Origin: Haliotis rufescens | Lineage: Eukaryota | Reading direction: 5' to 3' | Assembly (NCBI RefSeq): GCF_023055435.1 | Contig: NW_025963779.1 | Span: forward strand, 36,704,331-36,768,000 | DNA length: 63,670 nt | Shown here: positions 2,600 through 55,051 of the stretch, piece by piece | Layout: every line of letters begins with the position of its first letter | How positions within the stretch are numbered: the first letter of the stretch is position 1 | Position numbers and translations under genes: made by a program | Notes under the pieces: model-generated | Seen by the model: only the letters and a program-made list of their open reading frames with translations | What the model was told of the DNA's origin: nothing | Databases searched by the model: none

Positions 2600-2969
2600 G
2601 TGACAGTTTTGATATTCAATGATAATATGTAGTCAGTTGGTTTATCTGAAACACAAATATTTTCTACGGGATTTATAAGATATCCATACATAGTGACTTA
2701 AATCCTATTACCTGATTACCTGATTACCATGATAACTCATTTTTTTAGGATTACCGGGTAATATGAATACCGCTTGGTTGGGAGAGTGACGATGCTATTT
2801 ACGACATATTAGACACCCCATTGGGATATTTGTACAGAAACGATTCACTGCACTCCACTCACAGCGAGGACATGGTGGTAACATCATCTTCTCAAATATT
2901 GTGAAAATGAAACAGAGGAAATAATCCCAGTACTGTTATGTGACAAATCTCTGTATTTGTACCACGCTG

Positions 2970-3720
2970 GCAACACAGCTGCATGACATGTCATGCTGGT
3001 CATGTTCATAGACAACACAGCTGCATGACATGCAATGCTGGTCATGTTAATAGACAACACAGCTGCATGACATGTCATGCTGGTCATGTTTATAGACAAC
3101 ACAGCTGCATGACATGTCATGCTGGTCCTTGTAAATAGACAACACAGCTGCATGACATGTCATGCTGGTCATGTTTATAGACAACACAGCTGCATGACAT
3201 GTCATGCTGGTCATGTAAATAGACAACACAGCTGCATGACATGTCATGCTGGTCATGTTTATAGACAACACAGCTGCATGACATGTCGTGCTGGTCATGT
3301 TTATAGATAACACAGCTGCATGACATGTCGTGCTGGTCATGTTTATAGACAACAGCTGCTTGACATGTCATGCTGGTCATGTTAATAGACAACACAGCTG
3401 CATGGCATGTCATGCTGGTCATGATTATAGACAACACAGCTGCGTGACATGTCATGCTTGTCATGTTTATAGATAACACAGCTGCATGACATGTCATGCT
3501 GGCGATGTTTATAGACAACACAGCTGCATGACATGTCATGCTGGTCATGTTTATAGACAACACAGCTGCATGACTTGTCATGCTGGTCATGTTTATAGAC
3601 AACAAAGCTGCATGACATGTCATGCTGGTCATCTTAATACAGAACAAAGCTACATGACATGTCATGCTAGTCATGTTTATACAGCAGAACACAGCTCCAT
3701 GACATGGCATGTTGAATACA
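2970..3720. repeat. 42-bp minisatellite, about 18 copies
   Basis: Unit ACAGCTGCATGACATGTCATGCTGGTCATGTTTATAGACAAC; explains the repetitive ORFs at 2884-3755. Confidence 0.95.
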
Positions 3721-3776
3721 GCCATGGAACTTTGTTTAATTATTCAATTGTTTGATTGATTATATTCCATCCTTAT

Positions 3777-4187
3777 TAGGCTCGGATGGTTAATCTGATA
3801 CTTGGGTTGGGTGGGTACTGAGTAGGACCCGGGTACCCACAGTTCTACCTGGACCCGTGGTTAGTCACGTGATACATCATTTAATGACAAAAAGTCACTA
3901 TAGCTCAGTGGTTACAGTACAAGTTGGTAATGTTTGCATTTCTTTCTGACGATGTACACATTCCTTTTGACTTGTATATGCTTGAGAAAAGTTAAACCTT
4001 TCGTCACTTCAATGTTCGCATGATCTGATCGTTTGATACATGTATGTAAATAGTTTTTGCCGGGGCTGTGGTAAATCAATTCCCAATCAGACAGTTTGTA
4101 CCCAACTCTTGAGACCTACAATGCGTACCCAGGTAGGAATAAGGGGTCAGGCACCCAGGAAGTAAATTTGGACTAATCCCAGCCCTA
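3777..4187. mobile_element. hAT-like non-autonomous DNA transposon (8-bp TSD)
   Basis: TAGG(G)CT...AGCCCTA termini, perfect TSD atccttat. Inverted relative at 49444-49825 and a partial copy at about 42150-42360. Confidence 0.85.
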
Positions 4188-6326: not shown

Positions 6327-6803
6327 TAGGGCTATTACGATTCACTCGCGTATTCGTTGAATCGAACCGTATCCATTCATGAATTGAATTCGTTATTCTT
6401 GGCCACTAGAATTGAATATTTATGAATATGCAAGCATATGCATTTACATAAAAAAAATACCCATAAGAACATATTTTATGCATAGATTTCTTCAAAAGAC
6501 AACACTCTTATACTATTTAATTTGACAGTATTGTGGTCACTGGTCATTGTTGCATTTGAGCAGAAACTAGTACCTGGATAAATGCAGTAAATAAATGGAT
6601 AATATAATTAATAATATATTAAAAAATAAACAAACCATGTCAAATAATTTATGTTGTTGTTGCCTCACTGAACATGCTGAATATGACAAATGATATATCA
6701 ACTGCTGACTTGTTATTGTATTCGTGAATTAATATTCGTATTCGTTACCCTATATTCATGATACAAATCGTTTTCGCCTCATAGTGTATTCGTTGCAGCC
6801 CTA
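6327..6803. mobile_element. hAT-like MITE, second family (8-bp TSD)
   Basis: TAGGGCT...GCAGCCCTA termini, subterminal ATTCG repeats, perfect TSD tttaatac. Confidence 0.9.
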
Positions 6804-7115
6804 TTTAATACCTACCGAATACCAGTGCATGTTACAGTGCCTGTGCACATAATAATACCTACTGACTAACTACACATTGTAATGCCTGCCAACTACCAAG
6901 CATTAAAAGTTGGGCTAGCAGTCAGAAACATTTACTAGCCCTGATGAACAAGCCTTACCTGTCATGTTTATTGCTTATATAATCAAAGAATGAATTTTCT
7001 GCTCTCCCTTGTGTATGGTGAAACACATCAGGGATATGTAGGAATAGGTGGATGAGTGAAGTACATCAGCGCAGGAATTCAAGTCAAATGAAATGCACAA
7101 TCTAGTTTCCTTGGA

Positions 7116-7305
7116 CATTTCACTAACCACCTGGATCACATTTACTAACCACCAGGATCACATTCACTAACCACCAGGATCACATTCACTAACCACCAGC
7201 ATCACATTCACTAACCACCAGGATCACATTCACTCACATTCACTAACCAACAGGATCACATTCACTAACCACCAGCATCACATTCACTAACCAGCAGGAT
7301 CACAA
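7116..7305. repeat. 22-bp minisatellite, about 8 copies
   Basis: Unit CACATTCACTAACCACCAGGAT. Confidence 0.9.
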
Positions 7306-10254
7306 TGATACATTATGTTAACTAATGTGGCCTATTGGACAAACATTTAGTCGATGAAATCTTATATCACACAATACCCTTCTCGACTCTAAAAATTAAA
7401 AATAATTTTCCTATGCTGATTTCATAGACTGTGGAATAGAGCTAGCTAGAGCTGGCTAGACTTGGAATTTGTATAAGTTTCTAATTTATTTATTTTTTAT
7501 AAAATAAATACATTCCAAAGTCATGGTGCAGGACTAGGAGTCTATGGGTATTGAGATTGACTTGTTACTTTCTGCAAATACAATAACTTTTATATATGAG
7601 CATGATGAGAAACAATTAAATTAATCACAATGTTATCAAATAATAAATGAAAAAAAATATATTGACAATGAAGTAATTGTTTTAATTCAACAAATTTCTT
7701 AAACCATTGCTTAGGATTTTCCTGCCAGGGAAATGGTTTTAAATTTCTTTTCTTAATCATTGTGCCAAATTAATTTTTTTTAAATTCAGATGCCTACACG
7801 TTTCACTGCTTGGTATTAAGTTAAAAAATATAAACAAGATAAAAAAACAAATGTGGCCTTTATGTCCATCACTTACTAATATCACCTATCCAAATTATTG
7901 CACTAAACACAATACTATGAAAAACTTGAGCTTGAAAGGGAAAGTAAAGTCAACATTGCAACTTTGCAGATTTTAATTTTTATACTTAATCTGAAACGCT
8001 TGACCAAAATTAAATATGAAATCGGAAATAGTGAATAAAAGACAATAAAATACAACACAATAAATCGTCCCCCAAACAAAAACTATCCTCCAGTAAGGGG
8101 ATTCCCCTTTCTGGCAGTTAATAAGGTACCCTCTGCTTGACGTGTTGTGCAATTTTAATGATGGGGCCTTATCTTTTCCACTGGGTACTGAGAGAACACA
8201 GAACTAACTTTGTAACTACCAGTAAGGCTCTACATTCAACATGGCACCTTCCTGCCGTCAGAAAAAGGTCACTCAGTATCCAATAAACTTTTCAAATCTA
8301 TCACATGGCTGAAATCTATTTATTGAGTCTATATGCCAAATATCTGCCTTGAAGGCACAGCTAAACACCAAATACCATTATCATCATTCAAAGCTATTAC
8401 ATAACATTGGATGCAAGATAAACAGCATCTCCATAATCAATCAACTCTTAATCTGGAGACCAGTGGTGCATGTCTAATTCCCAGGAGTGTCTACAGCTGG
8501 CCTGGGTGTTGCCTGTAGGGGTAAATGACTACTGTAAAATATACGTGATATACTCAGAAGACTGCTTCAAGGAATTAGCAAATGGTGAAAGTCACTGAAG
8601 CATGGTGGTTACTGATGTGTGATAATCTCATAATGGCACAGTGTTTCTAACCAGGGAGCCTCTAAATACATGGATCCTCATACCCAAATATGGAGAATTA
8701 TGATATCTTGCTTGACCTGACTGACCCACAAAATGAGGTCACCATATTTCACCCTTGATCTGTCATTGTTTAAAAGAGGGAGTTGCATGTGATGTCACTA
8801 TGGAAAGTCATTAGAAATCTCTTTGTGGGTGAGGTTCGTTTGGTGACATCATGAATACAGCATGTGTAGTGTTCAGTCACTAAAACATTAAACATTTTAA
8901 AGAAATAACAATGTAATGACTCCACTGAATAAATTCAACCAAAGTAATTAAATTATTGGTGCAGTTTATACTTATTTGCTTTGATTGAACAAAACAACAA
9001 TAAGACTGATTCTGCAGGGAATGAGGCCTACTCATCCGAAACAACCTGCCCTGTGTTAGAGGTGTCCTCTGACATGTGCAATATGTGTTACTTTTTAATA
9101 GCTTGCCGAATATGTTATTGTTATCATAATAATCAGAAAAATACAACAACAAAATATTTCCCCAGACTAACATATCTGAAATGTGCGTCTACTTACTACA
9201 GCTTGTGTAGTCAATACTTTTGTTTGAACATAACAAAGTACAAAAAGAGAATAAAAACATTTCCTCATAAAGACCACATACTAGTGAAATTAGAAGGATC
9301 TTGTTTTATGGATTCTGAGTTAAACATTTTTATTATGTTACATCATATTTACACAATTGTTTCATGAACTATTGAAACTGATCAGAAATTGGAACAGAAA
9401 AAATGGATTTAAATATGTCAAAATGTCCTATTGTAAAGCTAGAACTAGAAATTTCGCTAAGGTTTACTCTTGTTCTAGAGTGCTTTCATAAGTTTGTGAC
9501 ATGCAATGACAAAATATAGTTCAAAATTATAATTCTTTTCTATCTTATTATGTCACTATGAACAAGGAATGAAATGTAAGACTGCTTGGTAGTCAATGTC
9601 ATTCCTAGACATATTAATAGGGGATATGTCAAGACAAATGACATGCTTTGTAAGACATTTACTGAGGTCCTTGAAATTTGCTTCTATAGTACAGGATTGT
9701 TATGACAGGACTCTTTGCCTGTCATGATTAATTAAATTTAACACTGACCATGTTGGTAATAGCGAACATGACAGGAAAATACTCAAACATGTATCTGAAG
9801 AACATGTTTTCACATGTAATCAGTAATGAAATAATAGCTGGAGATCCATGTTTTCATGGTAACATAGAAGGAAAGTTTAGTATGTATTTCATAAATAGTT
9901 GTGGAACTCACCCTGCCTTAGACTTACAGCAATGTTTGGTAAAACCCATTCTAAATTGTCTCTCAAATTCACAAGCACAACCTCTTATACTTATCTTAAA
10001 CTGATTGCATCACATAAATAGAATATGCACGTGTGAGGTTTAAATGAATCATAGTCTAGATCGTGAGTACTGTATACAATCAAACCATTCACTGCATGCA
10101 ATGACAAATAGAACATGTTGTAACCTTCTATTTTTAGTAAAACGTGAGCTAAAAAAGTACTTAAAGTCATTATAGGAAATAGTGGTTAGTTACCGATCGA
10201 TATCATTCTCCAAATAAACGAACGTACCGTCGCTTAAATATCATATCGCCTTAC

Positions 10255-10689
10255 CTGATTGTGTGTTGTTAAAGCAAACAATACCCTGTTCATAAACTCA
10301 TCCCACCAAAACTAGGAAGTGGGATTGGCGAAATAAACAGGAAGTTCTCCATCGAAAGGACAGTGCGCATGCCTGCTATTTCCTAAGTTGTTTGTAAATA
10401 TAATGGTATTGTGATTGATAAAATGTCGTCCATCCTTAAATCTAAGCTATTTATTGTTGATGAATAGTCATATTAAAAAATATGGTGCTTCATAATTTCG
10501 ACAATCTTCGTCAAATATTCCGTAAATATCAATGAACCAATAGGGACAAATGTTTAGATCCTGCCGACCAATCAAATGCAGGGACCGTGTTTGAAAACCT
10601 GTCAGATGCCTTCATTCGGTCACTAAACTTGCTAAGAGAGGCACAGCGAGGCGGTATTTGGAAAGTTTCGAACAACCGCGAAACCGAAA
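10255..10689. promoter_or_regulatory. Bidirectional promoter / 5' UTR region of SHC(-) and CKS1(+)
   Basis: Locally CpG-richer. CCAAT at 10537 and 10568, reverse CCAAT at about 10324, TTTGAA (CHR-like) at 10590, CAGGAAGT (ETS-like) at about 10338, GTGCGCATGC (NRF1-like) at about 10363, and a minus-strand splice donor at 10254. Confidence 0.65.
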
Positions 10690-13600
10690 ATGTCTGCCAA
10701 ACAGATATATTATTCCGACAAATATACGGATGAGGACTTCGAGTACAGGTGAGCATGTAATAATTTACATCAACCTGTTTGAACAATACCGCTCATAACA
10801 AGCACTTGTTGCAACTTGTTTGAAAACTGCGACGGTTTTTAAATACAGGATACTCGATGAACGAATAATCATAATAAACCATAATAAATGAAATAGGTCT
10901 CACCAGGTAAACAATATATTGCCAGTACTAGAGGGGTCAAATCAGTGTAATCTGTATTCATAAAAGCAAAGTTATCTCAAACGGATGCGAGGTGTTGCAT
11001 TCACACGTGACATGTGACATATCATAAACGTTTTAGCTAAATAAGACGTATCACTGATCACTGGATATTTGGGAATTATTTTTTGTTAGAACGTATATCT
11101 TAATCGTATCATTTATTATGGCATGGTCCCATCTATAACTTCTACCACCCTGCCTCGAATTTTATAAAATTCATAACATCTGGTTAGTTTGCAAATTTAG
11201 CCCATGCAAATGGCGAAGATGGGGTTACTGGCACAAATCTTTCCCATTTCTTACCATATAAGCATATGGGACAAGCACTTGGTAAGGCTGCATAGTACAG
11301 ACAAGTGCTGATGCACTGCATACTCTTTCCAGTAACAATTGGCAATGTTGGCATCGTTTCTATGAAAAAGGTGAATTATTACCAGGCTCAGGGATCCAAA
11401 TAACCATTGAGTAAATTACCCATTTGTATGTTTTCATCAGCTGACAGTATTCACTCTAGTCTATTTATATTCCTTTGGATTTCAGATTTGGGGTACTCAT
11501 AAGTTGACATTTTAATAATAATTCTGCTTAAAATGCTGTTTCAGGCAACTTTTAATTTTCTTCTGTTCATAGTCTTTCCCATTTATCACATGATGCATAA
11601 GCTCCCAACAGCAATACACGTCTCAGTTGTAAGCGAGACAGCACTCGGGGAAAGACACATGTACAGCCACAAGACCGTTTGTCCAAGACTAGTCTTGTGG
11701 GACTTTTATAAAATATTGAGTTTTTACTTGAACGAAAGTGGTTTATTTCACTATAACACATTGTTCTATCATGTCATTTCTCGAGATTCGAACATGCATT
11801 GCAACTTAATGACGTGGTAAATTGGACAACGTTATGTTTGAACGAGAAGTGTCTAGTGAGTTGATCCCCAATGCAGAAAAATGCGGCGTTAAACAACAAA
11901 CATTCTTGTGCATAATAATGAAAACTACATTTAATCTAAAAACTTAAAACGTGTATTATTCCCACTTTACTCAGCAGCAATATGAATTTTTGTTACAGAC
12001 ATGTAATGCTTCCCAAAGAAATTGCCAAACTTGTGCCAAAGACTCACTTGATGTCTGAACCAGAGTGGAGAAGTATTGGTGTCCAGCAGAGCCATGGCTG
12101 GATACACTACATGAGACATGAACCTGGTAAGCTATAGTCCTGTAAGATTTGAAGAATTAGCAGTGGGGAATTGCGGGTTGTGTCCCAAGGTAATTAACTT
12201 TGTAAGTTTAGAGTATTGGCATGAAGTATTGATGTGTCAACATGGTCAAGATCCATTGTATATTTGGTTATTGTATATGCTGGTTATTGTCTTGTACAAT
12301 AGTTTGGCAGAAAAGAAAACAATCTCATAAAACTCAGATCTTAGTTTTCATTGCTAAACAAAGATCTGAGGACATCCCATTACTGCGGTCACGTCAGAAC
12401 GACCTTTCATCCGACCAATCAAAGCATCGCTTACCAGATCATGAAAGTGACAGTCAGAATGTGTTTTCTAATCATGCAACCTCGAAAACATTAACACAGT
12501 GTATTCCGAACGACAGTTATGGCCCATACGTCTGATTCCATCAAAATTATCGTCTATCTCTTGCTTCAATGGGATAAACATTTGAACGGAGGAGGTGTTG
12601 CACAGTATATGTGGGAAGCACTGCTATGCAATCTCAACCATATATTAGACATTCCGGTATGTTCGTTTGTTCAGTTATCAAAATCTTAATCGAGAACTGC
12701 GTCAACATATTTTTCAAGTGTAGTCTGAAAGGGAAGTCGCCAGGTTGAAACGAGGTCCATAAAGTTGCATAAAGAGAAAGCTGCTTACCAGTTGGCTGAT
12801 GTCGAGTTCTTGTTATTCATTTCAGTGGTCGGTCAAAGTTCACGAAAGGTCGTTCTGAAGTGACCCATAATGGGATGTCCTCAGATCTTTGTTTAGCAGC
12901 AGCGAAAACTTCAGCATTAGAATTTGGCACTAGTCCTGTAGTCCTTACCAAACTGCCCAATAGTAGAGGTATCCTAAGGACTAGTAGAATTTGGCCCATT
13001 TTAAGGGTTTTGCTATATCTTATCATTGTAAGGACTAGTGGACAAAAACTGTTAGTTTCTAACCCTGATTGGTTGGTTGGTTGGTTGGTTGGTTGGTTTG
13101 TTGTTTAACGCTGCACTTGACCATACTGAAAGATTGAAAGTTAGTAGTGGGGCTCAACAGTCAACACATTCCATTTTTTCAGCGATATTTCTAATTTGGG
13201 CCTTTACACTTTGAAATTATCTTATATTCTCTCAAGATGCATTTCCATGGAACCAATGGAGTTGAAACTTCACATGGTTATTCCCACCACTGATGACATC
13301 TGAAAAAAATTCAAGAGGTTTGAGTCTGATTTCATTATGGCCACCAATCACCAGGTTTTTCTCTGTTAACATCCCTAAAATTTCCAGACTGAGAAAGCTT
13401 GACTTTGTTATGTATGGTTCTTGTGACATTTTGTTCAGATCATAAAGATTTTTCTGTGTTCTTTTGTAAACAATTTGAAAAAATGTATAGCATTAGAAAA
13501 ACGTTATGCTCCATGGAAGATTTATAAGCATAAGACTTGTTTCTAACTTTATATTTGTATATACTTTTGTTTCCAATGGCACAAAATATAACATGTTTTA

Positions 13601-24803: not shown

Positions 24804-27800
24804 ATGACATCCTCAGTATCTCAGTCTCTGGAATACCAGAGTTTCAGGAGCTCCATTCCACAGAAGAAGGTATATTTATATATGTTGTTTGAATGAATCT
24901 ATTTTGTGTATGATAAATTGTTTGTTCTTGTACAGTATGTTGAGTGTTCATTCTGTTCTACAGACTTTTATACTTACAGTAAAAGACTACATGTCTATCT
25001 TTTCTATCTACCAGATATAATTTTGGACATTTTGCCCTAATTCATTTTTATTTTGTCTTGTTTTCCTCTTAGTCTATGAAGACATTTGCAACATTTGATT
25101 TGAATTATCTAAAAGTTAAAAAACGCACAGCAATCTAAGTGAGTCACGGAGTCCAAACCTCCTGGCCTATTTGGATGGAACATTTTGACTTGGGTGATTA
25201 GTAGCACAAATAATAAATAGGAAAAGATAGTTTTGTTCTGATATGAATATTGAAGTCTTTCAGGGGAATTTAACTAAAATGAGGGCATTTGTCTTGTGAT
25301 TCCAAGCTAAGCTGTATCAGTGAACTTGGTTTGTGCCTATTATGATTTGTGATAGTTTGTCCAAAAGAGCTGTGTCAGCTACCTAGCACTTTCTTGCGGG
25401 TATGGAATACCTATTTCGTTATCCGTTATTGGCTCTCTTAAATTGCCGTTGTTTAATATTTCACGTTATGATTAGCTGTGACACGTTATTTCACAAGTAT
25501 CTTGTTGTAGTGAATTACCAAATATATTACACATTTTCTGTGAATTGTCTTTTTTTTACTCTTGAACCGTCATTATTTGTTTTCCCGTTTGTTTACATCA
25601 TAACCAGGAATACTAGTATATAGTAAACTTTGGAAACAGTTGCCTAAGCAATGCATGAGATGATCTGTCTGACAGGTTGTTACCGAGTTTATATGTTATA
25701 ATAATATGAGATGTGGTCCTAGTTTATACATGCAACAGCATAAACTTGACAATGATATGGTTTAAATCACTATCAGATTGGACCCGTGAAGATCCGGGGT
25801 AGAACAGGTCTTCAGCAACCCATGGTTGCCGTAAAAGGCGACTGCTTGTCGCAAGAGGCGACTAACGGGATTGAGTGGTCAGACTCACTGACTTGGTTGA
25901 TGCATGTCATTGATCCCAATTGCGTGGATCGATGTTCATGATGTCAGTCACTGGATTGTCTGGTCCAGCTTTGATTATTTACAGACCGCTGTCACATAGC
26001 TGGAATATTGCTGAGTGTGGCATTAAACAACAAACAAACAAACACTATCAGATCGATAAGTAAGAATGAATCTCTATGAAATAGTTTACGAGGCAATTAT
26101 TTGTGATTGTGAAGTGGGTGGAATTTTTGTGATCTGTGAAGAGTTGGTCTGAATTACCTGTGAACAGTTACTGGGCAGAAGTATTCCCTACTCTTTCTTG
26201 AGTGTCTGATTAACAATTACATGTACCTCAGGGTATGCATAACTTTCAGTCATAAGCTATTTACTTCTTAATAACTGGGAAAAAGTAGTGTTAAACCCAA
26301 CTCACTTACTAATAACTGAAACATTATATGAAGGCTTGAGGTCTGAGAAATTGTCAGACATTTTTGTGTGACATTGTGAAACAACATTTGCAATGGCCTT
26401 CGTTATTTGATTGTTTTGTGTGGTTACTGGTTTGTGGAGAAAGGGTTGATGGGGGTACATATACAATGCAAGATAAATACAAATAATTCATGAGGCAATT
26501 TGATGATTGTGTTATTTTTCTTTAGAACATGCTACCAAATGCTTCCAAAAGATCACACACCTCTGCACTCTTGTGACACTTGCTGACTGAGTAATAACCT
26601 GACTATTTCAGATAATAGTTGACGATGACAACAGCAAAGAGTGGACGCTGTATGATGCAGGACCAAAGAGCATCAAGTGTCCACTCATTTGTTTCCCCCC
26701 GGCCAGCGGCGGAGCAGACGTCTACTTCCGACAAATACTGGGCCTGTCTGCAGCTGGATTCCGGGTGATAGGGGTAGGCAACATCAGTAGAAAATACACT
26801 CCAACTGTCATTATATCAACCAAGGACAAAAAGTTGATGAAAATTATTCATACACTTTCATTTGAAATATTATCAACTTTTCTATAGAAGTTGCCGTCCA
26901 GACAAATGATAACTTAACCTTCTTCAAAGAAGATAAATGTTTATGAAGTATCTTCATTATTCCCAGGGAAGATTTATGCGAATCATAATTTTCAGTCACA
27001 ATTTATGTATGAACATTTCTTGAAGTACCCGGTACTTGTTGGAGGGGATGGGTAAGGGGTGACATAGTCATCTGAGATGGCACAATTCTCTTTCCCGTAG
27101 GCCAGAAACAGATGCTCATGGGTTCAAATCCCAGTTCATGTTACTAGGTTTGTCAGTGCATACCTTTGCTAATGGGTTTCACCAAACGTGGTAAATGTCT
27201 AAGATCTGTATTCTCTCTCGCTTTCCTCTCACATCAAGATGGCATACCGTGATGTAACTTAAATACTGTTCAAAGCAGCATTAAATCCAACTCCTTCACT
27301 TACTTGTTTAAGTTTTGCCGGATGTATCCAGTACAGCAATGTTTCAGGTGGAGTACCCGGTGTACTGGACCATGAAGGAACTATGTGAAGGCTTCAGAAA
27401 GTTATGTGATCATCTGCAGCTAAATAAAGTAAGTAATTTCGCTGTGGGCCCCTGAGAGTTCCCGAGCAGAAGTTACAATGTCATCATCATACTCTGATGA
27501 CGTTGATGTTCACTCTAGCTGTCAAGCACGGGTTTGTCTCGATTAAAGACTATGATGTTATATAGCTGGAATATCTCCTACTACAGTGGGAAACACCATC
27601 TGTCACTAACTATCTCTTAGTGTGACTCCTTCCACTTCTCCTGAGACATCGCCACATATAGCTGCGAAATTGCTGATGTGGCGTTTAGCAATATTCACCC
27701 ACTCAATCACTCTAATAAAACATTCATTTTGCAGCTGTGTTTGATATATTTCATAGTGTTTGACAGAAATATTTATCTGTTTGTTAAATAGCGTTTTTCC

Positions 27801-30800
27801 CCCAGACCGGGTGGCGATATTCTCCCTCACTGCCAACAGGTTCATGTTTATACTCTGCTTGTAACTGAGACTGTAGTAGAACTTTCTGCATGAAAATATT
27901 GCATCCTATATTAATAAAATTCAGAATGGGTGCAAATAATGTGCACTGCAATTCCAGACGCAAAAATGAATGGCTGGTGGAGTCATTTAAACTAATTTAT
28001 TTGTAGCCATGTGTTAAAGTTAACAGTCCCTCTGTTTCCTATTTTCTTCACTGAATTAGCTTCTGGCATCAGAGCACGTGCAATATTTTGAAGCTTTTAC
28101 ATTTCTGGAACTGTGGAAGTGTGCACTGTTGCCAGTCTGTAGACGTCAAATAGGTTAGAGTGGGCATATCAGGGCTCACATTTACATGCCAAATTTCTGG
28201 TAGTCGCCAGGACTCAGCTGTATGGACCCAGACATTCCTTGCTGATGTAATTCAGACCGTTGGTGACAACGTTACAGGAGGATCTGTCCTGAGATTTGTA
28301 CTGTGACATTCTTGCTTTTCATTGTGCTTGTGTTAACCTTCCATTATGTTCTAGACTGACCTGTTTATGTTCCACACCAGGTTCATATATTTGGGGCTTC
28401 TCTCGGAGGCTTCCTGGCCCAGAAGTTTGCCGAGTTCACTCACCGCTCTCCCAGGGTGGCGTCCATCATTCTATGCAACTCCTTCTACGACACGTCCATC
28501 TTCCAGCAGACAAACTCTGCCCCTACGTATGTACATGATGCCGTTGATGCTCGACCCTCTTCTAGAACTATGTTCCAGTGCATCTGTTGCTGAGGAATAC
28601 TTGCTGGATTCTGAAAAATTCTTTCCATTTCTACATCTCCTAAATTTACTGTCATGTGTTTTTGGTGAAGGGAGGGCAAAGATATGATATGCATCTCTTA
28701 GCAACAACAGGATCATTGGGTTTAAAAATGAAAAGTTCACTCAATCAGCTAGAGATGTTCAAATTTAATTAATCTTACATCAAATGCAGGGGTCATGTTG
28801 TGATTTTGCTGACTACTGTTTAATACTCAATTCAGTCACTCTCATCCACTGAGCTGGTGTATCCATCCTTTCAGATTCTGGATGATGCCAGCGCTGTTTC
28901 TCAAGAAGATGGTGATGGGAAACTTTGAAAAAGGCGTTGTTGATGCCGACATCGCTGACTCTGTTGATTTCCTGGTTGAAAAGGTTGGCCTCTTACACTT
29001 AAAGTTCATGTCCTTATAATTCATTAAATTGTTTGAGTTCACAAAAGTGGTAAAGACCTTCATCACCTTGAGCTTTCCTTCCACAGCTGACCTGCAATTA
29101 TACACCTGAGATACTATTCAGGGCAGTGTTAAACCCAATGATACACCTGAGATACTATTCAGGGCAGTGTTAAACCCAATGATACACCTGAGATACTATT
29201 CAGGGCAGTGTTAAACCCAATTATACATCTGAGATACTATTCCGGGCAGTGTTAAACCCAATGATACAACTGAGATACTATTCCGGGCAGTGTTAAACCC
29301 AATGATACAACTGAGATACTATTCATGGCAGTGTTAAACCCAATGATACACCTGAGATACTATTCAGGGCAGTGTTAAACCAAATGATAAAACTGAGATA
29401 CTATTCAGGGCAGTGTTAAACCCAATGATACACCTGAGATACTATTCAGGGCAGTGTTAAACCCAATGATACAACTGAGATACTATTCAGGGCAGTGTTA
29501 AACCAAATGATCAAACTGAGATACTATTCAGGGCAGTGTTAAACCCAATGATACACCTGAGATACTATTCAGGGCAGTGTTAAACCCAATGATACAACTG
29601 AGATACTATTCAGGGCAGTGTTAAACCCAATGATAAAACTGAGATACTATTCAGGGCAGTGTTAAACCCAATGATAAAACTGAGATACTATTCATGGCAG
29701 TGTTAAACCCAATGATTAAACTGAAATACTATTCAGGACAGTGTTAAACCCAATGATAAAACTGAGATACTATTCATGGCAGTGTTAAACCCAATGATAC
29801 ACCTGAGATACTATTCAGGGCGGGGTTAAACCCATTGATACAACTGACATGCTATTCAGGGCAGTTTTAAACCCATTGATACAACTGACATGCTATTCAG
29901 GGCAGTTTTAAACCCATTGATACAACTGAGATACTATTCAGGGCGGTTTTAACCCAACTCGCCCGCATTTATTTTCTGAGGTGGACACTAGTTTTCTGGC
30001 ATATGAGTATACAGAGTTGCGTCCCTTATCCATTCCTCACCTGTCTTAAGTTTGAATCCCAGACTGTGACTCTTTGTCTGTCAGTCATTTGGATCTGACT
30101 TTAGTGGTACATGTCTACAACCTGTGTCATGAAACTGATGTGCTGTAATATAACTGAAATGCAGTTTTAAGTGGTGAAAAAAGTCAGCTCACTCACTTAT
30201 GTTAGAAGTTAAACACAGCTTCATCCTAGGAACCTGCTGATTTCAAAGTGTTTCTGCATCCTCCAACATCCAACGCATCATACCTCCATTCTGTTACAAT
30301 AGATCCCCAGGACTCGTTTATCTCAGTCAGAGAATTTGTGTGTGTAGTTACTGATAAGAGAGATGTACATAGTAATGGCACCCAAACAAAGCAATTGTGG
30401 CAAATAGATCCCGATTATTTATCATGGTACAACTAACTAAATCTAGGATGATGTTTCAGTTCCTTGTCGTCTTTCTAACTTTACAGTTGGACCAACTTAG
30501 CCAGCCCGAGTTGGCCTCGAGACTTACACTGAACTGCATGAACTGCTACATTGAACCACAGAAACTACGGGGAGTTGAGGTCACCATCATCGATGTAAGT
30601 ACTCTCACTAGACCACTCTCCTGTAGATTCTATATCAGCGTTAATGTCCAGGTCACCATCATCGATGTAAGTACTCTCCCTGGACCTCTCTCCTGTAGAT
30701 TCTATATCAGCGTTAATGTCCAGGTCACCATCATCGATGTAAGTACTCTCCCTGGACCTCTCTCCTGTAGATTCTATATCAGCGTTAATGTCGAGGTCAC

Positions 30801-33800
30801 CATCATCGATGTAAGTACTCTCACTAGACCACACTCCTGTAGATTCTATAACAGCATTAATGTCGAAGTCACCATCATCGATGTAAGTACTCTCACTAGA
30901 CCACTCTCCTGTAGATTCTATATCAGCGTTAATGTCAAGGTCACCATCATTGATGTAAGTACTCTCACTAGACCACTCTCCTGTAGATTCTATATCAGCG
31001 TTAATGTCGAGGTCACCATCATCGATGTAAGTACTCTCACTAGACCACTCTCCTGTAGATTCTATATCAGCGTTAATGTCGAGGTCACCATCATTGATGT
31101 AAGTACTCTCACTAGACCACTCTCCTGTAGATTCTATATCAGCGTTAATGTCAAAGTCACCATCATTGATGTAAGTACTCTCACTAGACCACTCTCCTGT
31201 AGATTCTATATCAGCGTTAATGTCGAGGTCACCATCATCGATGTAAGTACTCTCACTAGACCACACTCCTGTAGATTCTATATCAGCGTTAATGTCGAAG
31301 TCACCATCATCGATGTAAGAACTCTCCCTGGAGTAAGTACGATTCGATAGGGGCGACGAAGGAGCGGTCCACCTGGGCCTGCTCATAGGCTTCGTCGCTA
31401 AGAATCAGAAATTTGGCCAAACGGAGAGAGAATTCAGTGTAAGATCACTCAAAGAAATCTTACACCCTGCTGATACCGAGGACAGATCGCTGTGTCTTGT
31501 TAGGGCCCTCAAGTATTATCTTAAGGCTTCGAATGAACGCAGACAAGGGCGTGACCGTCTGTTCATATCGTGTAACCCTAATTGGACTGCTGACATAACT
31601 CGCAACTCGATTGTGTTATGGCTTCGTTCTGTCATCAATCTGACGTACCGGTCTCGGGGGTTACCGGTTGCGCATGAGATCAGGGCGCTAGCGGCAACAT
31701 TTGCCCTACACTCCAATATATCTGTTCACAGAATATTGCAGGGTTGTTACTGGCGTTCTGACTCGGTTTTTGCCAATCATTACCTCAGAAAGGTCTCTGA
31801 TGAAGACGTGGAGGGTGTGCAACGTCTTGGGCCGCTGATTGTGGCATGTAGAGGGTGCTATGATCAGTTGATGGTGCTAAGGCATGTAGAGGGCGCTATG
31901 ATCTGTTGATGGTGCTAAGGCATAGAAAGGGCGCTTTGATCAGGTGAAGTTGCTAAGGCATGTAGAGGGCGCTATGGTCTGTTGATGGTGCTAAGGCATG
32001 TAGAGGGCGCTATGATCAGGTGAGCGTGCTAAGGCATGTAGAGGGTGCTATGATCAGTTGATGGTGCTAAGGCATGTAGAGGGCGCTATGGTCTGTTGAT
32101 GGTGCTAAGGCATGTAGAGGGCGCTATGATCAGGTGAGGATGCTATGGTCTGTTGATGGTGCTAAGGCATATAGAGGGCGCTATGGTCTGTTGATGGTGC
32201 TAAGGCATATAGTGGGCGCTATGATAATGGTGAGGGTGCTAAGGCATGTAGACGGCGCTATGGTCTGTTGATGGTGCTAAGGCATGTAGAGGGCGCTGTG
32301 ATCAGGTGAGGGTGCTAAGGCATATAGAGGACGCTATGATCTGTTGATGGTGCTAAGGCATATAAAGGGCGCTATGATCAGGTGAGGGTGCTAAGGCATA
32401 TAGAGGGTGCTATAATCAGGTGAGGGCGCTATGGTCTGTTGATGGTGCTAAGGCATGTAGAGGGCACTATGATCAGGTGAGGGCGCTATGGTCTGTTGAT
32501 GGTGCTAAGGCATGTAGAGGGCGCTATGATCAGGTGAGGGTGCTATGATCAGTTGAGGGTGCTAAGGCATGTAGAGGGCGCTATGGTCTGTTGATGGTGC
32601 TAAGGCATGTAGAGGGCTCTATGGTCTGTTGAGGGTGCTACTGTCTGTTGCAGGTGTTTGATGACTGTGCCTTATCTCATACTGTGAGAGAGGAGATGTA
32701 CAAATGTTACCCAGAAGCTAAACGAGCCCACCTGAAGACTGGCGGCAACTTCCCTTACCTGAGTCGCAGTGCAGAGGTCAACGTCTTCATACAGGTACAT
32801 GACATAGATTACAGTGTTACTTGATACAATGGTCTGGTGCTTCATTGACTTCATTTCACCCCGTACCAAAACTACAACTGTAAGGCAAGAAAATATTCCT
32901 GCAACTTCAAGAATTGTGACAAGGATATATATAGAATTCCAAACTAAGTGCCCTTGGGAGGCAAATTGGGTAAAACATATGTTATTGTCTTAAATTCAGT
33001 GGTATTTTAACATTATATTTTAGCATTACCTTCAATATAGTAGACTTCTTTCTTTACTGGTCCTGTTATCAGTGAAACAAAAACCACCCCTATAAAGCCA
33101 TGACTTACGTTAGTTAGACATTCTGCAGTTTTAAGTCCAATTTGGAAATTTATACTGTCTTTTGCAGCAGACTTGTGGCGAGATATGTGCCTCTGAGCAG
33201 AGATGAATCCCTGTCTGAAGCAGTTATTATTTCAAATGACTCAAAGTAATTCTATCTCGGTTTCATTGCCTTTGACAATGGAATAAACGACCTAACATGA
33301 CACGGTTTGATTTTTGTGTATATACAATATGTCATTATATCGCAACAAAGTTTATTGTTGCAGCCCCAACTCGTTGTATGTGTTAAGCTATGATATATTG
33401 AAAGTCAGGCGACATTTCAGTCTCAGCTGTGTAAGGAGGTATTTATGTCCCAGTTGTCTGCCCCTTCTGCAGAGATGCAGCTCGAACTTGCTCGTATCAT
33501 GTTGCTTGTGGATTCAAATCCTGGATTCACCCTGAAAATTTGCTGGTGATCCAGGCACATTTTGTTATATTGATTGCCTGACCAAATCTGCAATAAATTA
33601 AATGAAAGGGACCCAAACTTACCACTTTTTCATATGCACAGACCCGTGAAGATCCGGTGTAGAATGGGTCTTCAGCAACCGATGCTTGCCGTAAAAGGTG
33701 ACTTTGCTTGTCGTAAGAGGCGACTAACGAGATCGGGTGGTCAGACTTGCTGACTTGGTTGATGCAATATGATCGTATCGCAATTGCGTGGATCGATGCT

Positions 33801-34142
33801 CATGATGTCAATCACTGAATTGTCTGGTCCAGACTCGATTATTTACAGACCGCCGTATAGCTGGAATATTGCTGAGTGCGGCCTTAACAACAAATCATAT
33901 GCGAATGGCAAGAAGGTTTTTGATAGATCGAGTGTGACAAAATTTTAGTCCATCAGCTTGGGAAAATTAGTTTTGGGAGGGAGCCTAAAAGTTTATGACT
34001 TTAGTTCTTAGCAAACCGTGATGTGTTGCAGATTCATTTAAAGCAGTTTGACACTACCCAGTACCATGCCAAAGAAATCACAGCAGAGGAGCAGGAGAAC
34101 TATAACACCCGTGATGCCAACGCCAACATCAACGAATCATGA
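24804..34142 (+). CDS. SPG21: Maspardin (alpha/beta-hydrolase fold), 307 aa, 8 coding exons
   Basis: Exons 24804-24869, 26612-26773, 27348-27428, 28381-28526, 28875-28983, 30487-30594, 32654-32794 and 34032-34142 (924 nt, all GT-AG). Motifs [46 protein letters not shown] and [19 protein letters not shown] match maspardin. Confidence 0.97.
25781..26042 (+). mobile_element. Short non-autonomous retroelement (SINE-like family A) with non-tRNA head and (CAAA)n tail
   Basis: Starts GACCCGTGAAGATCC and ends GCTGGAATATTGCTGAGTGTGGCATTAAACAACAAACAAACA. 13-bp TSD cactatcagat(t/c)g at 25768-25780 and 26043-26055. Confidence 0.9.
29100..29960. repeat. 41-bp minisatellite, about 21 copies, in SPG21 coding intron 5
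   Basis: Unit ATACACCTGAGATACTATTCAGGGCAGTGTTAAACCCAATG. Confidence 0.95.
30577..31331 (+). repeat. 72-bp minisatellite spanning the SPG21 exon 6 / intron 6 boundary, about 10.5 copies
   Basis: Unit GAGGTCACCATCATCGAT|GTAAGTACTCTCACTAGACCACTCTCCTGTAGATTCTATATCAGCGTTAATGTC; donors recur every 72 nt from 30595 to 31315. Confidence 0.97.
31337..31847 (+). mobile_element. DIRS-type retrotransposon tyrosine recombinase, C-terminal fragment
   Basis: About 170 stop-free codons: GFVAKNQ...[14 protein letters not shown]...RLFIS...[10 protein letters not shown]...[12 protein letters not shown]...[18 protein letters not shown]...LGPLIVA. It has the H-x-x-R, W and Y catalytic pattern of DIRS1-group YRs. 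Confidence 0.88.
31843..32653. repeat. 38-bp (2 x 19) minisatellite abutting the SPG21 exon 7 acceptor
   Basis: Subunits TGCTAAGGCATGTAGAGGG, CGCTATGGTCTGTTGATGG and CGCTATGATCAGGTGAGGG. Confidence 0.95.
33641..33894 (+). mobile_element. SINE-like family A, full-length copy
   Basis: Same first nucleotide and body as 25781-26042, with a tcatatgc TSD on both sides. Partial copies at about 16945-17025, 42555-42672, 42812-43002 (minus, between (GA)n tracts), 59145-59438 and 61360-61915. Confidence 0.9.
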
Positions 34143-38002: not shown

Positions 38003-39380
38003 ATGTTGGTGCAGAAGTCCCACTCCTTGTGCCAGCAAGATGCTGAATAGCATGGTTAGTGCAGAGGTCCCACACCTTGTGCCAGCAAGATGCTGAACAG
38101 CATGGTTAGTGGTGAGGTCCCACTCCTTGTGCAAGCATGGTTAGTGCAGAGGTCCCACTCCTTGTGCCAGCAAGATGCTGAACAGCATGGTTAGTGCAGA
38201 GGTCCCACACCTTGTGCCAGCAAGATGCTGAACAGAATATTTAGTGCAGAGGTCCCACACCTTGTGTCAGCAAGATGCTGAATAGCATTGTTAGTGCAGA
38301 GGTCCCACTCCTTGTGCCAGCATGGTTAGTGCAGAGGTCCCACTCCTTGTGCCAGCAAGATGCTGAACAGAATGGTTAGTGCAGAGGTCCCACACCTTGT
38401 GCCAGCAAGATGCTGAACAGAATGGTTAGTGCAGAGGTCCAAAACCTTGTGCCAGCATGGTTAGTGCAGAGGTCCCACTCCTTGTGCCAGCAAGATGCTG
38501 AACAGAATGGTTAGTGCAGAGGTCCCACACCTTGTGCCAGCAAGATGCTGAACAGAATGGTTAGTGCAGAGGTCCAAAACCTCGTGCCAGCATGGTTAGT
38601 GCAGAGGTCCCACTCCTTGTGCCAGCAAGATGCTGAACAGAATGGTTAGTGCAGAGGTCCCACTCCTCGTGCCAGCAAGATGCTGAACAGAATGGTTAGT
38701 GGTGAGGTCCCACTCCTCGTGCCAGCATGGTTAGTGCAGAGATCCCACTCCTTGTGCCAGCAAGATGCTGAACAGAATGGTTAGTGCAGAGGTCCAACAC
38801 CTCGTGCCAGCATGGTTAGTGCAGAGATCCCACTCCTCGTGCCAGCAAGATGCTGAACAGAATGGTTAGTGGTGAGGTCCCACACCTTGTGCCAGCAAGA
38901 TGCTGAACAGAATGGTTAGTGCAGAGGTCCCACACCTCGTGCCAGCATGGTTAGTGCAGAGGTCCCACTCCTTGTGCCAACAAGATGCTGAACAGAATGG
39001 TTTGTGCAGAGGTCCTACTCCTCGTGCCAGCAAGATGCTGAACAGAATGGTTAGTGCAGAGGTCCCACTCCTTGTGCCAGCAAGATGCTGAACAGCATGG
39101 TTAGTGCAGAGGTCCCACTCCTTGTGCCAGCATGGTTAGTGCAGAGGTCCCACGTCTAGTGCCAGCAAGATGCTGAACAGAATGGTTAGTGCAGAGATCC
39201 CACTCCTCGTGCCAGCAAGATGCTGAACAGAGAGGTTAGTGCAGAGGTCCCACACCTCGTGCCAGCAAGATGCTGAATAGAATGGTTAGTGCAGAGGTCC
39301 CACACCTCGTGCCAGCAAGATGCTGAACAGAATGGTTAGTGCAGAGGTCCCACACCTCGTGCCAGCAAGATGCTGAATAG
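38003..39380. repeat. 50/35-bp minisatellite between SPG21 and MRPL34
   Basis: Unit CATGGTTAGTGCAGAGGTCCCACTCCTTGTGCCAG, with or without CAAGATGCTGAACAG. Confidence 0.95.
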
Positions 39381-39626
39381 ATCCAGAATTGAAATCATGA
39401 CAGAAATGAAGCACAAGAAAGCTCCCTTCTGATTGGTCAATCCATTGGACGGTCAAAGTTTGGCGCAAGGTCATTCTGATGTGACCCGTAATGGGATGTC
39501 CTCAGATCTTTGTTTAGCGGTAGCGAGAACAAAGATCTGATTTTAACGAGATTGGACTTAGATTCCAATTTATTGATCGTTTACTTAATGATTCGATGAA
39601 ATTTTGATGTGTAAAAAAACTGATTA

Positions 39627-49825: not shown

Positions 49826-50450
49826 TTTGTGATATATTATTACTTTAAATGCAATTTTAAAATACCTCTGAAAGATTAACTTTAAAAAATTCCCAATTTT
49901 GAAGAAAATAATGATTTTTCCCAATTTGCCTGCCAGGAGCACTTAGTTCAGTCTCCCAGATAAGCCCCTGATGAGAGCTGATTTTGAGTCAAGCCAGTTA
50001 CTTTGTACATGTTGTATAGGTTCCTCTAAATCAATATGGCAGTGTGGTTATCCAGTGGTCAGTGTTTCGTTTGTCACACCACTGACCGAGGTGGTGTCTG
50101 ACACATGCTTGGAGATGTCCATGAGTTTACTTCTCTGTGATCATGCTGGACTATTGCTGGACTATTGCTGGACTATTGCTGGACTATTGGTCGAAGCAGA
50201 GTGTAGCCATACCCACACACCTACTTTATCATAATTCATTAACTGGTGTTAATACTTATTATTTAAGACCCAGGAGAATATTATGTAATATCAACTCACT
50301 GACTATTATTTTCATAATCAGGTGTTGCTTGTTATTGCTTAGAACCCTGGAGAATATTATGGAGGACTTGTGTTTTGTTGCAGAGGCTGCTGTCCCGTGT
50401 ACCAGATGGAGAGAGTGGACTGACACAGTGAGACCCGCCTCTCTATCACC

Positions 50451-53400
50451 ATGACAGGAGGGGGTGGTTGCTGCTGCCGGAGGCCCAACAAGATTTCTCC
50501 AGCCCCGGGAACAGAATCTGAATACCAGCTTGTGGAAATCAGACCCAAACGACATTTAAGAATCAGGCACATCAATCATGTTCCCAGAGATGAAAAATTT
50601 CAAAATGAAATGGACACCTATTTAATGTACAGACGTCAGGGGTATCCATCCAGCCTTGTGACCAGTGGTCCTCTAACGGCACCTAAGAGGAGGGTTGTCT
50701 CCGATAGGCCAGGTGGGCCGCATAGCGACATCCTGCCTAATACAATGAATACTACTGAAACAGCTATCACTGCCAGTAGTTTGTCACCAATACAAAATGG
50801 AATTTCAGGGATGCTGTCCAAAGAGTCAACATTCTCGTGCAGTTCCCCTTTAAATCAGAATGCTGTAAGATCTGCTTCAAGTGTCATGGTTGCTGTGGAC
50901 AAGAAGCAACCCTATCAGGGAGTCAATCATCATCCATTATCTGAAGAGGTGACAAAGCCAGACACTCTAGACATACCTGCTGTGGAAAATGAGCAAAAAT
51001 CCAAAGACGTCAAGGACAAAACCACCAGCAATGATTGTGTGCTGTTCTTCATACATGGTGTAGGGGGGTCCAGCGATATATGGATGCCTCAGCTGGAGTA
51101 TTTTGCTAATGAGGGCTACGAGATCATTGCTCCTGACCTCATTGGTCATGGGTTCAGTTCCACTCCAAACAATGCAAGGGCGTATCACTTTGATGAAATC
51201 ATGGCCGACATGGAAGAAATGTTTGATAAATACTGCAAGAGGAAGAATATTGTTATTGGTCATTCATATGGGTGAGAGAAACATGTATGCCTTTTGTTAT
51301 AATGTTTTAAATCTACAAACGGTGGTAATGAATACCCGATATGTTGGTATTTCAGCTGATTTTAAACTTTTTCTGTCACACTGTTATTTAAGATATTGTG
51401 ACTGTGGTCTAGTGGTAGAGCGTAAGGTCCAGGGTTCAATACCCGTCCGCATCATACCAAAAGACGTTAAAAGATTGTACCAATTGTTACCCTGCCTGGT
51501 GCTTGTCTAAGTGAAGATAACCTTATCATGTTTATGCTTCTGCAATAAACATAGGATAAATGCTTGTCTAAGTGAAGATAACCTTATCATGTTTATGCTT
51601 CTGCAATAAACATGATAAATGCTTGTCTAAGTGAAGATAACCTTATCATGTTTATGCTTCTGCAATAAACATAGGATAAATGCTTGTCTAAGTGAAGATA
51701 ACCTTATCATGTTTATGCTTCTGCAATAAACATAGGATAAATGCTTGTCTAAGTGAAGATAACCTTATCATGTTTATGCTTCTGCAATAAACATGATAAA
51801 TGTTTGTCTAAGTGAAGATAACCTTATCATGTTTATGCTTCTGCAATAAACATGATAAATGCTTGTCTAAGTGAAGATAACCTTATCATGTTTATGCTTC
51901 TGCAATAAAGATATGATAAATGCTTGTCTTAGAGAAGATAACCTTATCATGTTTATGCTTCTGCAATAAACATAGGATAAATGCTTATCTTAGTGAAGAT
52001 AACCTTATCATGTTTATGCTTCTGCAATAAACATAGGATAAATGCTTGTCTTAGTGAAGATAACCTTATCATGTTTATGCTTCTGCAATAAACATAGGAT
52101 AAATGCTTGTCTTAGTGAAGATAACCTTATCATGTTTATGCTTCTGCAATAAACATAGGATAAATGCTTGTCTAAGTGAAGATAACCTTATCATGTTTAT
52201 GCTTCTGCAATAAACATAGGATAAATGATTGTCTTAGTGGAGATAACCTTATCATGTTTATGCTTCTGCAAAAAAATATATGATAAATGCTTGTCTAAGT
52301 GAAGATAACCTTATCATGTTTATGCTTCTGCAATAAACATAGGATAAATGCTTATCTTAGTGGAGATAACCTTATCATGTTTATGCTTCTGCAATAAAGA
52401 TATGATAAATGCTTGTCTTAGTGAAGATAACCTTATCACGTTTATGTTTGCAATAAAGATATGATAAATGCTTGTCTTAGTGAAGATAACCTTATCATGT
52501 TTATGCTTCTGCAATAAACATACGATAAATGCTTGTCTTAGTGAAGATAACCTTATCATGTTTATGCTTCTATTTTTGCAACGATATGTTCATGATGTGT
52601 TCCAACTCTGTTTAATATACTTGCCATGTTTACAGACAACACAGTTATTTTTGTTGCAGATGTTCGTTTGCAGCTGTACTTGGTCGGAAACGGTCGCGCC
52701 GTGTGGCCAAGCTTGTGCTGATCAGTGGCGGGGGGCCCACCCCTCTCAACCCCCAGCCCGGCATCTTCTCCCTCCCTGTGTGTATGCTGTGCTGTGTCAG
52801 ACCATGTGTAGAGTGCACCTTTAAAAAGTAAGTCAGGTTACCATGGTTACCATGTGTATGCAAGACATTTTACTTTTGGAACTTCATCTTTCCATTATCA
52901 TTGATGATGTACTCCGACTCTCTAGCCCTGTAGGTGTTGGTAGTAGACCCCTGGTGCTCATCCTTTGCCGTACCCAGACGTACTTACATGCCATCATGAG
53001 ATAGTTTGAATATTGCTGATTGCAGTGTTAAACAACATCCATTCACTTCACTGATAGTGAAAGATCGTAACACAGCTAGTTACAACCCAAGTTGTTGTTT
53101 TTTCAGATCGAGACTGTGCCATTTCTACTATCCCCTCACAACCCAACCAGATGTCCTAGCCACATGTACAAATCATTCGGTCATTTCTCCTTACTTACCA
53201 ATTACTTTGCAACAATAGAATTCCACAACTCATGGACAGTATTTACATACCTTATCACTTCTGATTACTAGAGTTATTCCCCTTTATCTGATCTTGACCT
53301 ACCAGATGTGCGAGGGAGATGTGTGAAAAATTTATCCAAATTAGAGAGCATCAATTACATAATGAATTGATCTTTTGTTCCTTAATTTTAGTCTTAATTA

Positions 53401-55051
53401 AGTTTGGAATAAACAGATTTTAGTTTATGAATAGTAAATTAGGGACTGTGAAGTTTGTTTAGACAGGTTCCATATGCCTGTATGTTTTTTTAAGGTTGAC
53501 AAATATTTACTTTACCTTTCTCACAGTATCCCTGTAACATTTACTGAGTCAACACCTAAGGTAGTATCAATTCCATTATACAATGTTATATCTGGGTGTA
53601 CATTGTAATTTTGTGGACATGACATTTTAGGCTCTACAAAGAAATATAAAGCATTGCAATTATCAGACACTAGATTACATGGTTATATGTGCAGTTTATC
53701 AAAAATTATGAATACCATTAAGGTCTGCTTGCCTTTTCATTAGGGATAATATTACTTCATCAGAGGCTAATTCAATACTGCAGAGTCACATGATCCTACA
53801 GTCCGTCTCCGAGACCCCAGAGAAAAAATTTAAAATGGAGTCCAACTCAAGTCTAGAATAATTCAGAAAGCCTAGATTGCCTCAGCTCTCAGAAATTAAG
53901 GAGTGTTCTGGGCTTCATTTGGATTTTAGTTTTTTCATTTTTTAGAAATATATTTTCAGATAAGATAACATTATTTCTGGGACAAAATATCTGTCTACTG
54001 ATCCTGAAATGGTCTGACACTATATTCTCTCTCCAGGAGTGCATTCGCATCCACCAGGAGGCCAGTCCTGTCACCAGAGGAAGCATTTGCAATCCCCACA
54101 TATGTCTTACGCCACACAATGAATGGCCAGATCTGGCCGGATGGAGATGAGCTGTTCCACAACTGGCTGATGTGCCCCACACTCCTCATCTACGGCCTCA
54201 AGGACCAGCTGGTGTCCCTGCGTGAGGAGAAGGACATGGAGGAGGTGGGTCATCTCACGTTCCATCTCAGCACAGTGGAGGGGCTGTTGGGTAGTCTAGC
54301 GGTTAGAGTGTTCACGTGTCTAGCAGAAGGTTTGGGTTGATTCCCTACATGGGTACACTGTGGGAAGCTCATTTATTATGTACCCCATCATGATATTGCT
54401 GGAATATCGCTAATNNNNNNNNNNNNNNNNNNNNNNNNNNNNNNNNNNNNNNNNNNNNNNNNNNNNNNNNNNNNNNNNNNNNNNNNNNNNNNNNNNNNNN
54501 NNNNNNNNNNNNNNNNNNNNNNNNNNNNNNNNNNNNNNNNNNNATCTATTAATTACATTAATCCTTGCAAATTTAGAAACAGTGGGGAGATGTAGTTACA
54601 TGTTTCATATTTGTTAATACTTTTGTACAGATGTCTTTTGAATAGCAATGCTGAGAATCAATGATCTAGGACCCCAGAACCCATATTAAATTCAAACTCT
54701 ATTTAAGATGTTGTCTTTAATGTTCATGTATTACCTGGAATACACAACATGATGTCACACCTGGCTAGACAGGTGTTGTCCAGACCCTGCCTCCACTCCA
54801 CCAAGTCTTCACTGTTCCAGGCCATCTACCAGTCCAGGCTGGAGGTGATTGAGGACGCCAGCCACATGGTGATGATAGAGGCTCCATCTGAAGTCAATCA
54901 GTTCATTAAGGATTTCCTCCATCAGTCATCCCAGTTTGTGGAGGAAAGCAGCCCAGGTCGAGAGCAACAGGCCATCAGTCGAATGTCTCAGCGGTCCACC
55001 AAGTCTGCAAGGTCATCTCGAGGTGGCCAACAGAGCAAGGTCATGAGATGA
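50451..55051 (+). CDS. ABHD8: Abhydrolase domain-containing protein 8, 475 aa, 4 coding exons
   Basis: Exons 50451-51271, 52660-52827, 54037-54244 and 54821-55051 (1428 nt). Motifs YQLVEIRPKRHLRIRH, VLFFIHGVGGS, APDLIGHG, nucleophile elbow GHSYG, ISGGGPTPL, GQIWPDGDE and SHMVMIE match ABHD8. Confidence 0.95.
51499..52570. repeat. ~61-bp minisatellite, about 17 copies, in ABHD8 coding intron 1
   Basis: Unit TGCTTGTCTAAGTGAAGATAACCTTATCATGTTTATGCTTCTGCAATAAACATAGGATAAA. Confidence 0.95.
54280..54414 (+). mobile_element. Short tRNA-headed SINE running into the assembly gap
   Basis: GGGTAGTCTAGCGGTTAGAGTGTTC...GGGTTGATTCCC head, plus the GATATTGCTGGAATATCGCTAA tail shared with the other SINEs. 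Confidence 0.65.
54415..54543. other. Assembly gap (129 N) in ABHD8 coding intron 3
   Basis: Run of N; the flanking ABHD8 exons join in frame without an extra exon. Confidence 0.99.

Follow-up and report, generated by a model that had tools for sequence, protein, structure and literature searches.

Tenfold repetition of an exon/intron boundary in red abalone SPG21, with splicing at the first donor site in assembled transcripts

The window analysed here is a stretch of 63,670 nucleotides (nt) of the red abalone, Haliotis rufescens (contig NW_025963779.1, positions 36,704,331 to 36,768,000, forward strand), and it contains SPG21, the gene of maspardin, an alpha/beta-hydrolase-fold protein that lacks the catalytic triad according to excerpts of a published account (PMC12483374). 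At the end of coding exon 6, a minisatellite repeats the boundary between exon 6 and intron 6 about ten times, so that a ladder of donor sites stands where one is expected. Our results support the notion that transcripts are spliced at the first of these donors and that the extra ones are probably carried along, with next to no effect, by a minisatellite that drifts, a reading to which we assign a probability of about 0.8. An earlier note on this DNA had proposed that the number of repeat copies might tune protein isoforms through alternative donors.

Results

The gene was modelled with tblastn and splice signals as eight exons from 24804 to 34142. The product obtained with donor 1 has 307 amino acids and is 100% identical over 306 amino acids to a Haliotis rufescens RefSeq protein (P0122), and the gene is therefore red abalone SPG21. 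The features on which the argument rests are the following.

30487..30594, + strand: SPG21 coding exon 6, 108 nt, ending at a codon boundary; AG/GT boundaries; the repeat unit takes its exonic part from the final 18 nt of this exon
32654..32794, + strand: SPG21 coding exon 7, 141 nt; matches maspardins, and its letters stand behind 30596 in the RNA contigs
30577..31326, + strand: 72-bp minisatellite of SPG21 intron 6, 10.4 copies; each unit holds 18 exonic nt, the donor and 48 further intronic nt
30595..30600, + strand: authentic donor 1, GTAAGT; every RNA contig observed is spliced here
30667..31320, + strand: pseudo-donors 2 to 11 in 72-nt steps, all in frame; nine are GAT/GTAAGT and one is GAT/GTAAGA
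31330..31338, + strand: twelfth in-frame donor-like site, GGA/GTAAGT (GTAAGT at 31333), where the truncated last unit joins a presumed DIRS-type fragment

Tandem Repeats Finder described the donor array as a period of 72 with 10.4 copies, 95% matches and no indels, and the units differ pairwise at a mean of 3.3 of their 72 positions. This bears out, together with the RefSeq match, the earlier description of the unit as the last 18 nt of SPG21 exon 6 followed by the donor and intron bases. The motif AT[CT]GAT/GTAAG recurs at 30595+72n for n=0 to 10, exactly where eleven near-identical donors had been placed; GAT/GTAAGT is common to donors 1 to 10 only, the eleventh is GAT/GTAAGA, and the site at 31333 had been missed. 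The SPG21 frame stays open from exon 6 across all units, with a first stop at 31348, and the unit is indeed a stop-free multiple of three. Each further donor would thus add 24 amino acids as proposed, in frame and at that length, but the encoded peptide is not constant and varies from unit to unit. An acceptor-like sequence, said to be present in every unit, was found as CTCTCCTGTAG in eight of the ten full units, units 4 and 10 carrying CACTCCTGTAG instead; the AG of CTCTCCTGTAG would yield an exon of 40 nt that shifts the frame, and with the next AG the exon would have 28 nt. A 15-nt microexon encoding VTIID had also been suggested, and CAG-flanked segments of this length do end at 30666 and 30738, the CAG acceptor being present at only two of the ten unit joins. 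The matches to exon 6 and the units that were found in the abalone's own genome (at least seven) all lie inside the donor array, which points to an origin at this locus. The first unit spans the real exon/intron boundary, and an intact splice signal is reiterated within the intron. The donor array is thus an exon/intron-boundary minisatellite, of the kind already known from human F7 and called a "mirage" elsewhere.

Donor use was studied in four of 24 sequencing runs, aligned to 29990-30676 (exon 6, unit 1 and donor 2). No run is recorded as RNA; three of them are presumed to be RNA and called RNA-like here, and their contigs join exons across introns. Two of these (X18 and X20) share a species label and the third (X10) has a second one, and they come from two studies. 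Three runs of raw reads, which are microRNA libraries, were left out, and junctions were viewed from the exon 6 side only. In all three RNA-like runs, exons 5, 6 and 7 lie in a single unbroken contig that passes through the 30594/32654 junction (X18, 1985 nt at depth 96; X20, 1985 nt at depth 32; X10, 827 nt at depth 38). The contigs cover 30485-30596 at exon 6, and the letters of exon 7 follow directly behind donor 1. Exon 6 joins exon 7 without a 15-nt microexon between them in all three, and the proposed microexon is not borne out by these contigs, with which an inclusion specific to neural tissue would be compatible. Among the records listed, no loose end at donor 2 was seen at contig level in any of the four runs, and X20 and X10 had no contig on the array. 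Array-unit contigs of X18 stand at about 29-34 times the depth of its own unique intron, and those of the DNA run X12 at 37-53 times, contig depth being a poor measure. Because the two ratios are close, the X18 contigs would fit an unspliced background, although this comparison is weak and contig depth gives no copy number. Downstream donors were seen in none of the three mature RNA contigs, which are blind to forms below a few percent, and a protein search with the unit peptide matched none of 143 candidates at E<=1 (weak evidence). Donor 1 is the dominant form at the level of assembled contigs. Strict choice of the proximal site, which had been offered only as a fallback, is what all three RNA-like runs display at this level. 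The 30594/32654 junction was the only one seen, an observation that had been named in advance as speaking against alternative donor use, and it holds for assembled contigs and not at read level.

The protein itself conveys the same picture. The exon 7 query matches maspardins, the best match being that of Haliotis asinina (94%), and the donor-1 junction is present in four Haliotis RefSeq proteins. Among 141 proteins, 99 had both anchors around the exon 6/7 junction, and the spacing between anchors was 57 amino acids in 95 of them, 56 or 58 in three and 74 in one. The last protein (P0109) carries 17 extra residues at the junction; these look like intron read-through in a genomic contig, and we did not treat the protein as an isoform. 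An AlphaFold model made for a snail maspardin (from 57 sequences; predicted local distance difference test, pLDDT, 88) places the junction at the end of strand E218-224, adjoining the invariant V224 and D226. Our search found no solved maspardin structure and returned only two distant hydrolases. Junction and protein length are the same as in relatives, and the product contains no new intron or exon. The idea that the array illustrates a route to new exons or introns finds no support in this product.

The array as such is far beyond chance, whereas its being in frame and stop-free is not. Indeed, in a blind sample of the genome (described below) 42 of 117 arrays have a period divisible by three, and when the intronic part was shuffled 20,000 times, 48.5% of the resulting sequences were stop-free, which together gives about 16% by chance. 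Three of the ten distinct unit changes are synonymous in the SPG21 frame, where 2.4 are expected (P=0.43; low power), and the donor hexamer would remain unchanged in units 1 to 10 with P=0.46 under chance (low power). With respect to the SPG21 frame the substitutions look neutral, and the ten unit changes gave no sign, at low power, of purifying selection on the inserted peptide.

Intron 6 spans 2,059 bp, of which the donor array takes up 740 bp. A dispersed element accounts for a further 512 bp and a second array for 794 bp, and the last 13 bp lead up to the acceptor.

31335..31846, + strand: piece of about 512 bp from inside a multi-copy retrotransposon, putatively DIRS-type, tyrosine-recombinase region; dispersed matches
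31843..32640, + strand: second minisatellite, 38 bp (2 x 19 bp); the 19 nt directly ahead of the acceptor AG of exon 7 match its subunit

The fragment is found at 91-93% identity in at least 40 other genomic places, where the other copies extend past both of its ends. We presume that the element belongs to the DIRS group; a longer copy gave weak Phage_integrase matches (E 1.7e-5 and 6.8e-4, below the Pfam cut-offs), and a Pfam search with the fragment itself gave no match. Its joins share short words with the neighbouring arrays, AAGTAC on the left and GGCA on the right, which suggests capture during repair rather than by transposition. The 19 nt ahead of the acceptor AG recur with 14 or more of 19 bases at 13 positions of the second array, and outside it neither strand of the window has such a match. 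This array also holds eight donor-like CAG/GTGA decoys, seven of which match the donor consensus at 8/9 positions, compared with 7/9 for the real donor. Thus, intron 6 appears to be amplified at both ends, and transcripts are nevertheless spliced between donor 1 and the usual acceptor.

Four Haliotis RefSeq models fuse SPG21 with a downstream ABHD8-like gene into proteins of 788-794 amino acids (window positions 34032-34142 and 50427-55048), and oyster and mussel entries of 805-864 amino acids resemble such a fusion. However, the joint is not at the same place in the four abalones, a stop terminates exon 8 in the present DNA, and RNA contigs of 1985 nt do not have the length that a fusion would require. 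The fusion is probably an artefact of annotation, spanning two genes that form a conserved pair.

Discussion

The array might have arisen by a local duplication that was seeded by chance on the end of exon 6, in a genome where minisatellites make up about 17% of the sampled DNA, and slippage or unequal exchange would then have amplified and homogenised the 72-bp unit. A repair or template-switch event probably added the DIRS-type fragment through the short shared words. As to splicing, donors 1 to 10 share an identical 9-mer, so that position must decide and strength cannot. The first donor would then be chosen because of where it stands: with the donor closest to the acceptor of exon 6, the exon stays at 108 nt, and the later ones would give exons of 180-846 nt. 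Such a positional choice would match, by analogy, the 5'-to-3' first-site rule of human F7. If donor 2 or 3 were taken on rare occasions, the frame would be kept and the transcript would probably evade nonsense-mediated decay; no such slip was seen.

Several points weigh against this reading. The evidence consists of assembled contigs seen from the exon 6 side, and since contigs lose rare forms, a leakage of a few percent would be invisible. A contig over the junction of a later donor would be only about 40 nt long and could fall under the alignment threshold; moreover, the contig table holds 18 of the 51 aligned records, 33 lying outside it. Evidence for the scanning rule comes from mammalian cells and not from molluscs, and in human 6-16 and CBS the one or two pseudo-donors that come next are used, as excerpts of one report describe (PMC1557585). 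The insert might also loop out and fold, because it would repeat a whole strand motif. In a rival reading, proximal use might be leaky, with donor 1 dominant and donors 2 and 3 taken in a few percent of cases, giving stable in-frame transcripts with 24 or 48 additional amino acids and no selected role. The identical 9-mers, the open frame, the precedent of 6-16 and CBS (PMC1557585, in the parts consulted) and the blindness of contigs to rare forms are all compatible with it, but no junction of donor 2 or 3 occurs in the three RNA-like runs and the unit peptide is absent from the 143 candidate proteins, a weak argument by itself; we regard leakage of this kind as unlikely. Somewhat less probable still is the stronger form, in which donors 2 and 3 are used measurably in some tissues or alleles and yield a decay-resistant maspardin with a duplicated core strand and a 24-amino-acid loop.

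A selected device, in which the array tunes maspardin isoforms by its copy number through in-frame donors or the 15-nt microexon, could draw on a period divisible by three, a stop-free frame and the intact donors 1 to 10. However, frame and openness together come at a chance rate of about 16%, intact donors are also expected by chance (P=0.46), the unit changes look neutral, 98 of 99 maspardins have the same spacing to within one residue, and the RNA contigs use donor 1 only. The main internal AG would moreover give the frame-shifting 40-nt exon, and the microexon acceptor is restricted to 2/10 joins. Given the three donor-1 contigs, the 0/143 peptide matches and the neutral changes, the tuning proposed by the earlier note was not upheld, and we hold it to be highly improbable. 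That the array is an assembly artefact, for which only the general risk attached to tandem arrays speaks, is next to inconceivable: the units carry distinct variants, in the DNA run X12, whose flanks depart from the window at three sites, unit contigs reach a depth of 46-185 compared with 29-41 for the flank, and contigs of X18 join unit end to unit start. Contigs assembled from short reads of further animals contain the unit as well, so the array is no artefact of this assembly, a doubt that the earlier note had raised itself; it is multi-copy in the animal of X12, although short-read contigs give no copy number. First-donor splicing with passenger donors therefore remains the reading that we favour.

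Boundary minisatellites have been described before. In the intron 7 (IVS7) 37-bp variable number tandem repeat of human F7, identical donors follow a boundary unit and only the most upstream is normally used, a 5'-to-3' first-site rule that was shown experimentally in mammalian cells; the authentic donor alone is used in F7, LMNB2 (unit of 100 bp) and PDGF (unit of 81 bp, intron 4), and two pseudo-donors are also used in the boundary minisatellites of 6-16 (intron 2) and CBS (IVS13), according to the consulted portions of that report (Borensztajn et al. 2006, PMC1557585). As in F7, the first unit in abalone spans the exon/intron boundary and is followed by identical donors. The abalone unit has 72 bp with 18 exonic nt in about ten copies, in contrast to 37 bp with four exonic nt in 5-9 copies, and it is in frame and stop-free; polymorphism and the scanning rule are described for F7 (PMC1557585, in part). 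The anatomy is the same in 6-16, CBS, LMNB2 and PDGF; LMNB2 and PDGF have units of similar size and use the authentic donor only, whereas the pseudo-donor use of 6-16 and CBS was not seen in abalone at contig level (same portions of PMC1557585).

In amphioxus, "mirage" minisatellites occur in Adh3, with units of 10-72 bp, and in the globins BflGb6 and BflGb9, seemingly without interference in regular splicing, and either boundary can be copied; the intron-gain model raised for the present array is already proposed there (PMC3087553, in the sections consulted). Both cases are tandem duplications of an exon/intron boundary in an invertebrate with regular splicing kept. The abalone is a mollusc, and in it a single intron is amplified at its two ends and carries a piece of a retroelement in the middle; length instability is described for amphioxus (PMC3087553, as excerpted). 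The human spl-TRs are similar in that repeat length can change splicing in cis, but they are genotype-splicing associations that involve protein binding and branch-site distance and not reiterated donors, as far as the excerpts of that study go (PMC10078293). A narrow search of the open-access literature found no report of such arrays in abalone or other molluscs. What is unusual is that intron 6 consists almost entirely of an amplified 5' end, a DIRS-type fragment and an amplified 3' end.

The abalone array is a further example, in a mollusc, of a spliceosome that copes with a ladder of identical donors. Because none of the donors breaks the frame or brings in a stop, the products of slips would probably persist despite nonsense-mediated decay, and for this reason read counts at the locus would reflect the true choice of donor and not choice plus decay, which gives the locus a modest value as a test case for leakage at read level. 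If minor in-frame isoforms did track allele length, minisatellite turnover would be linked to protein variation, and if donors 2 and 3 were used, the in-frame arrays among possibly thousands might be a standing, heritable source of protein insertions.

Other minisatellites in the window and the genome

Nine minisatellite arrays make up 9.7% of the window, including other long ones at 2971-3711, 29095-29957, 38005-39381 and 51500-52571. By their mapped coordinates, the two that lie in intron 5 of SPG21 and intron 1 of ABHD8 stay clear of exon ends.

The blind sample comprised 80 stretches of 10 kb (800 kb) at round coordinates on 13 contigs, with arrays defined by a period of at least 20 and at least five copies. 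It yielded 117 arrays, or 17.1% of the DNA, and 16 of them passed a donor filter: one is confirmed as exon-linked, one is likely and 14 are unconfirmed.

L038 5607-7753 (G000:C2:15000001-15010000): 85-bp minisatellite, donor of a ceramide-synthase-like exon repeated 25 times, confirmed; exon 84% identical to H. asinina
L016 6138-6511 (G000:C1:2000001-2010000): 64-bp minisatellite, six repeats of the end and donor of what is probably the first coding exon of a CLCA gene, likely

The period of the 85-bp array is not divisible by three. The CLCA-like exon (Pfam E 0.0036, below the cut-off) was the only credible match among 30 candidate frames from the 16 arrays, and searches of PDB sequences with the two exons gave no match for either. 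With an assumed 150,000-250,000 donors, 0.46-0.76 donor-seeded arrays are expected by chance in the sample, and two or more with a probability of 0.08-0.18; since one or two were found, an enrichment of arrays at donors is not shown. Extrapolation to the whole genome gives about 1,700-3,300 donor-seeded arrays, with wide limits (400-12,000 if 2/117 holds).

On the acceptor side, 113 frames in 53 arrays were listed, outside the Pfam testing. End units with donor-like motifs lie beside open frames in two arrays (L082 6787-7468 and L034 312-1721), and an end unit with an acceptor-like motif lies beside an open frame in a third (L089 3904-4768); all three frames are candidate exons.

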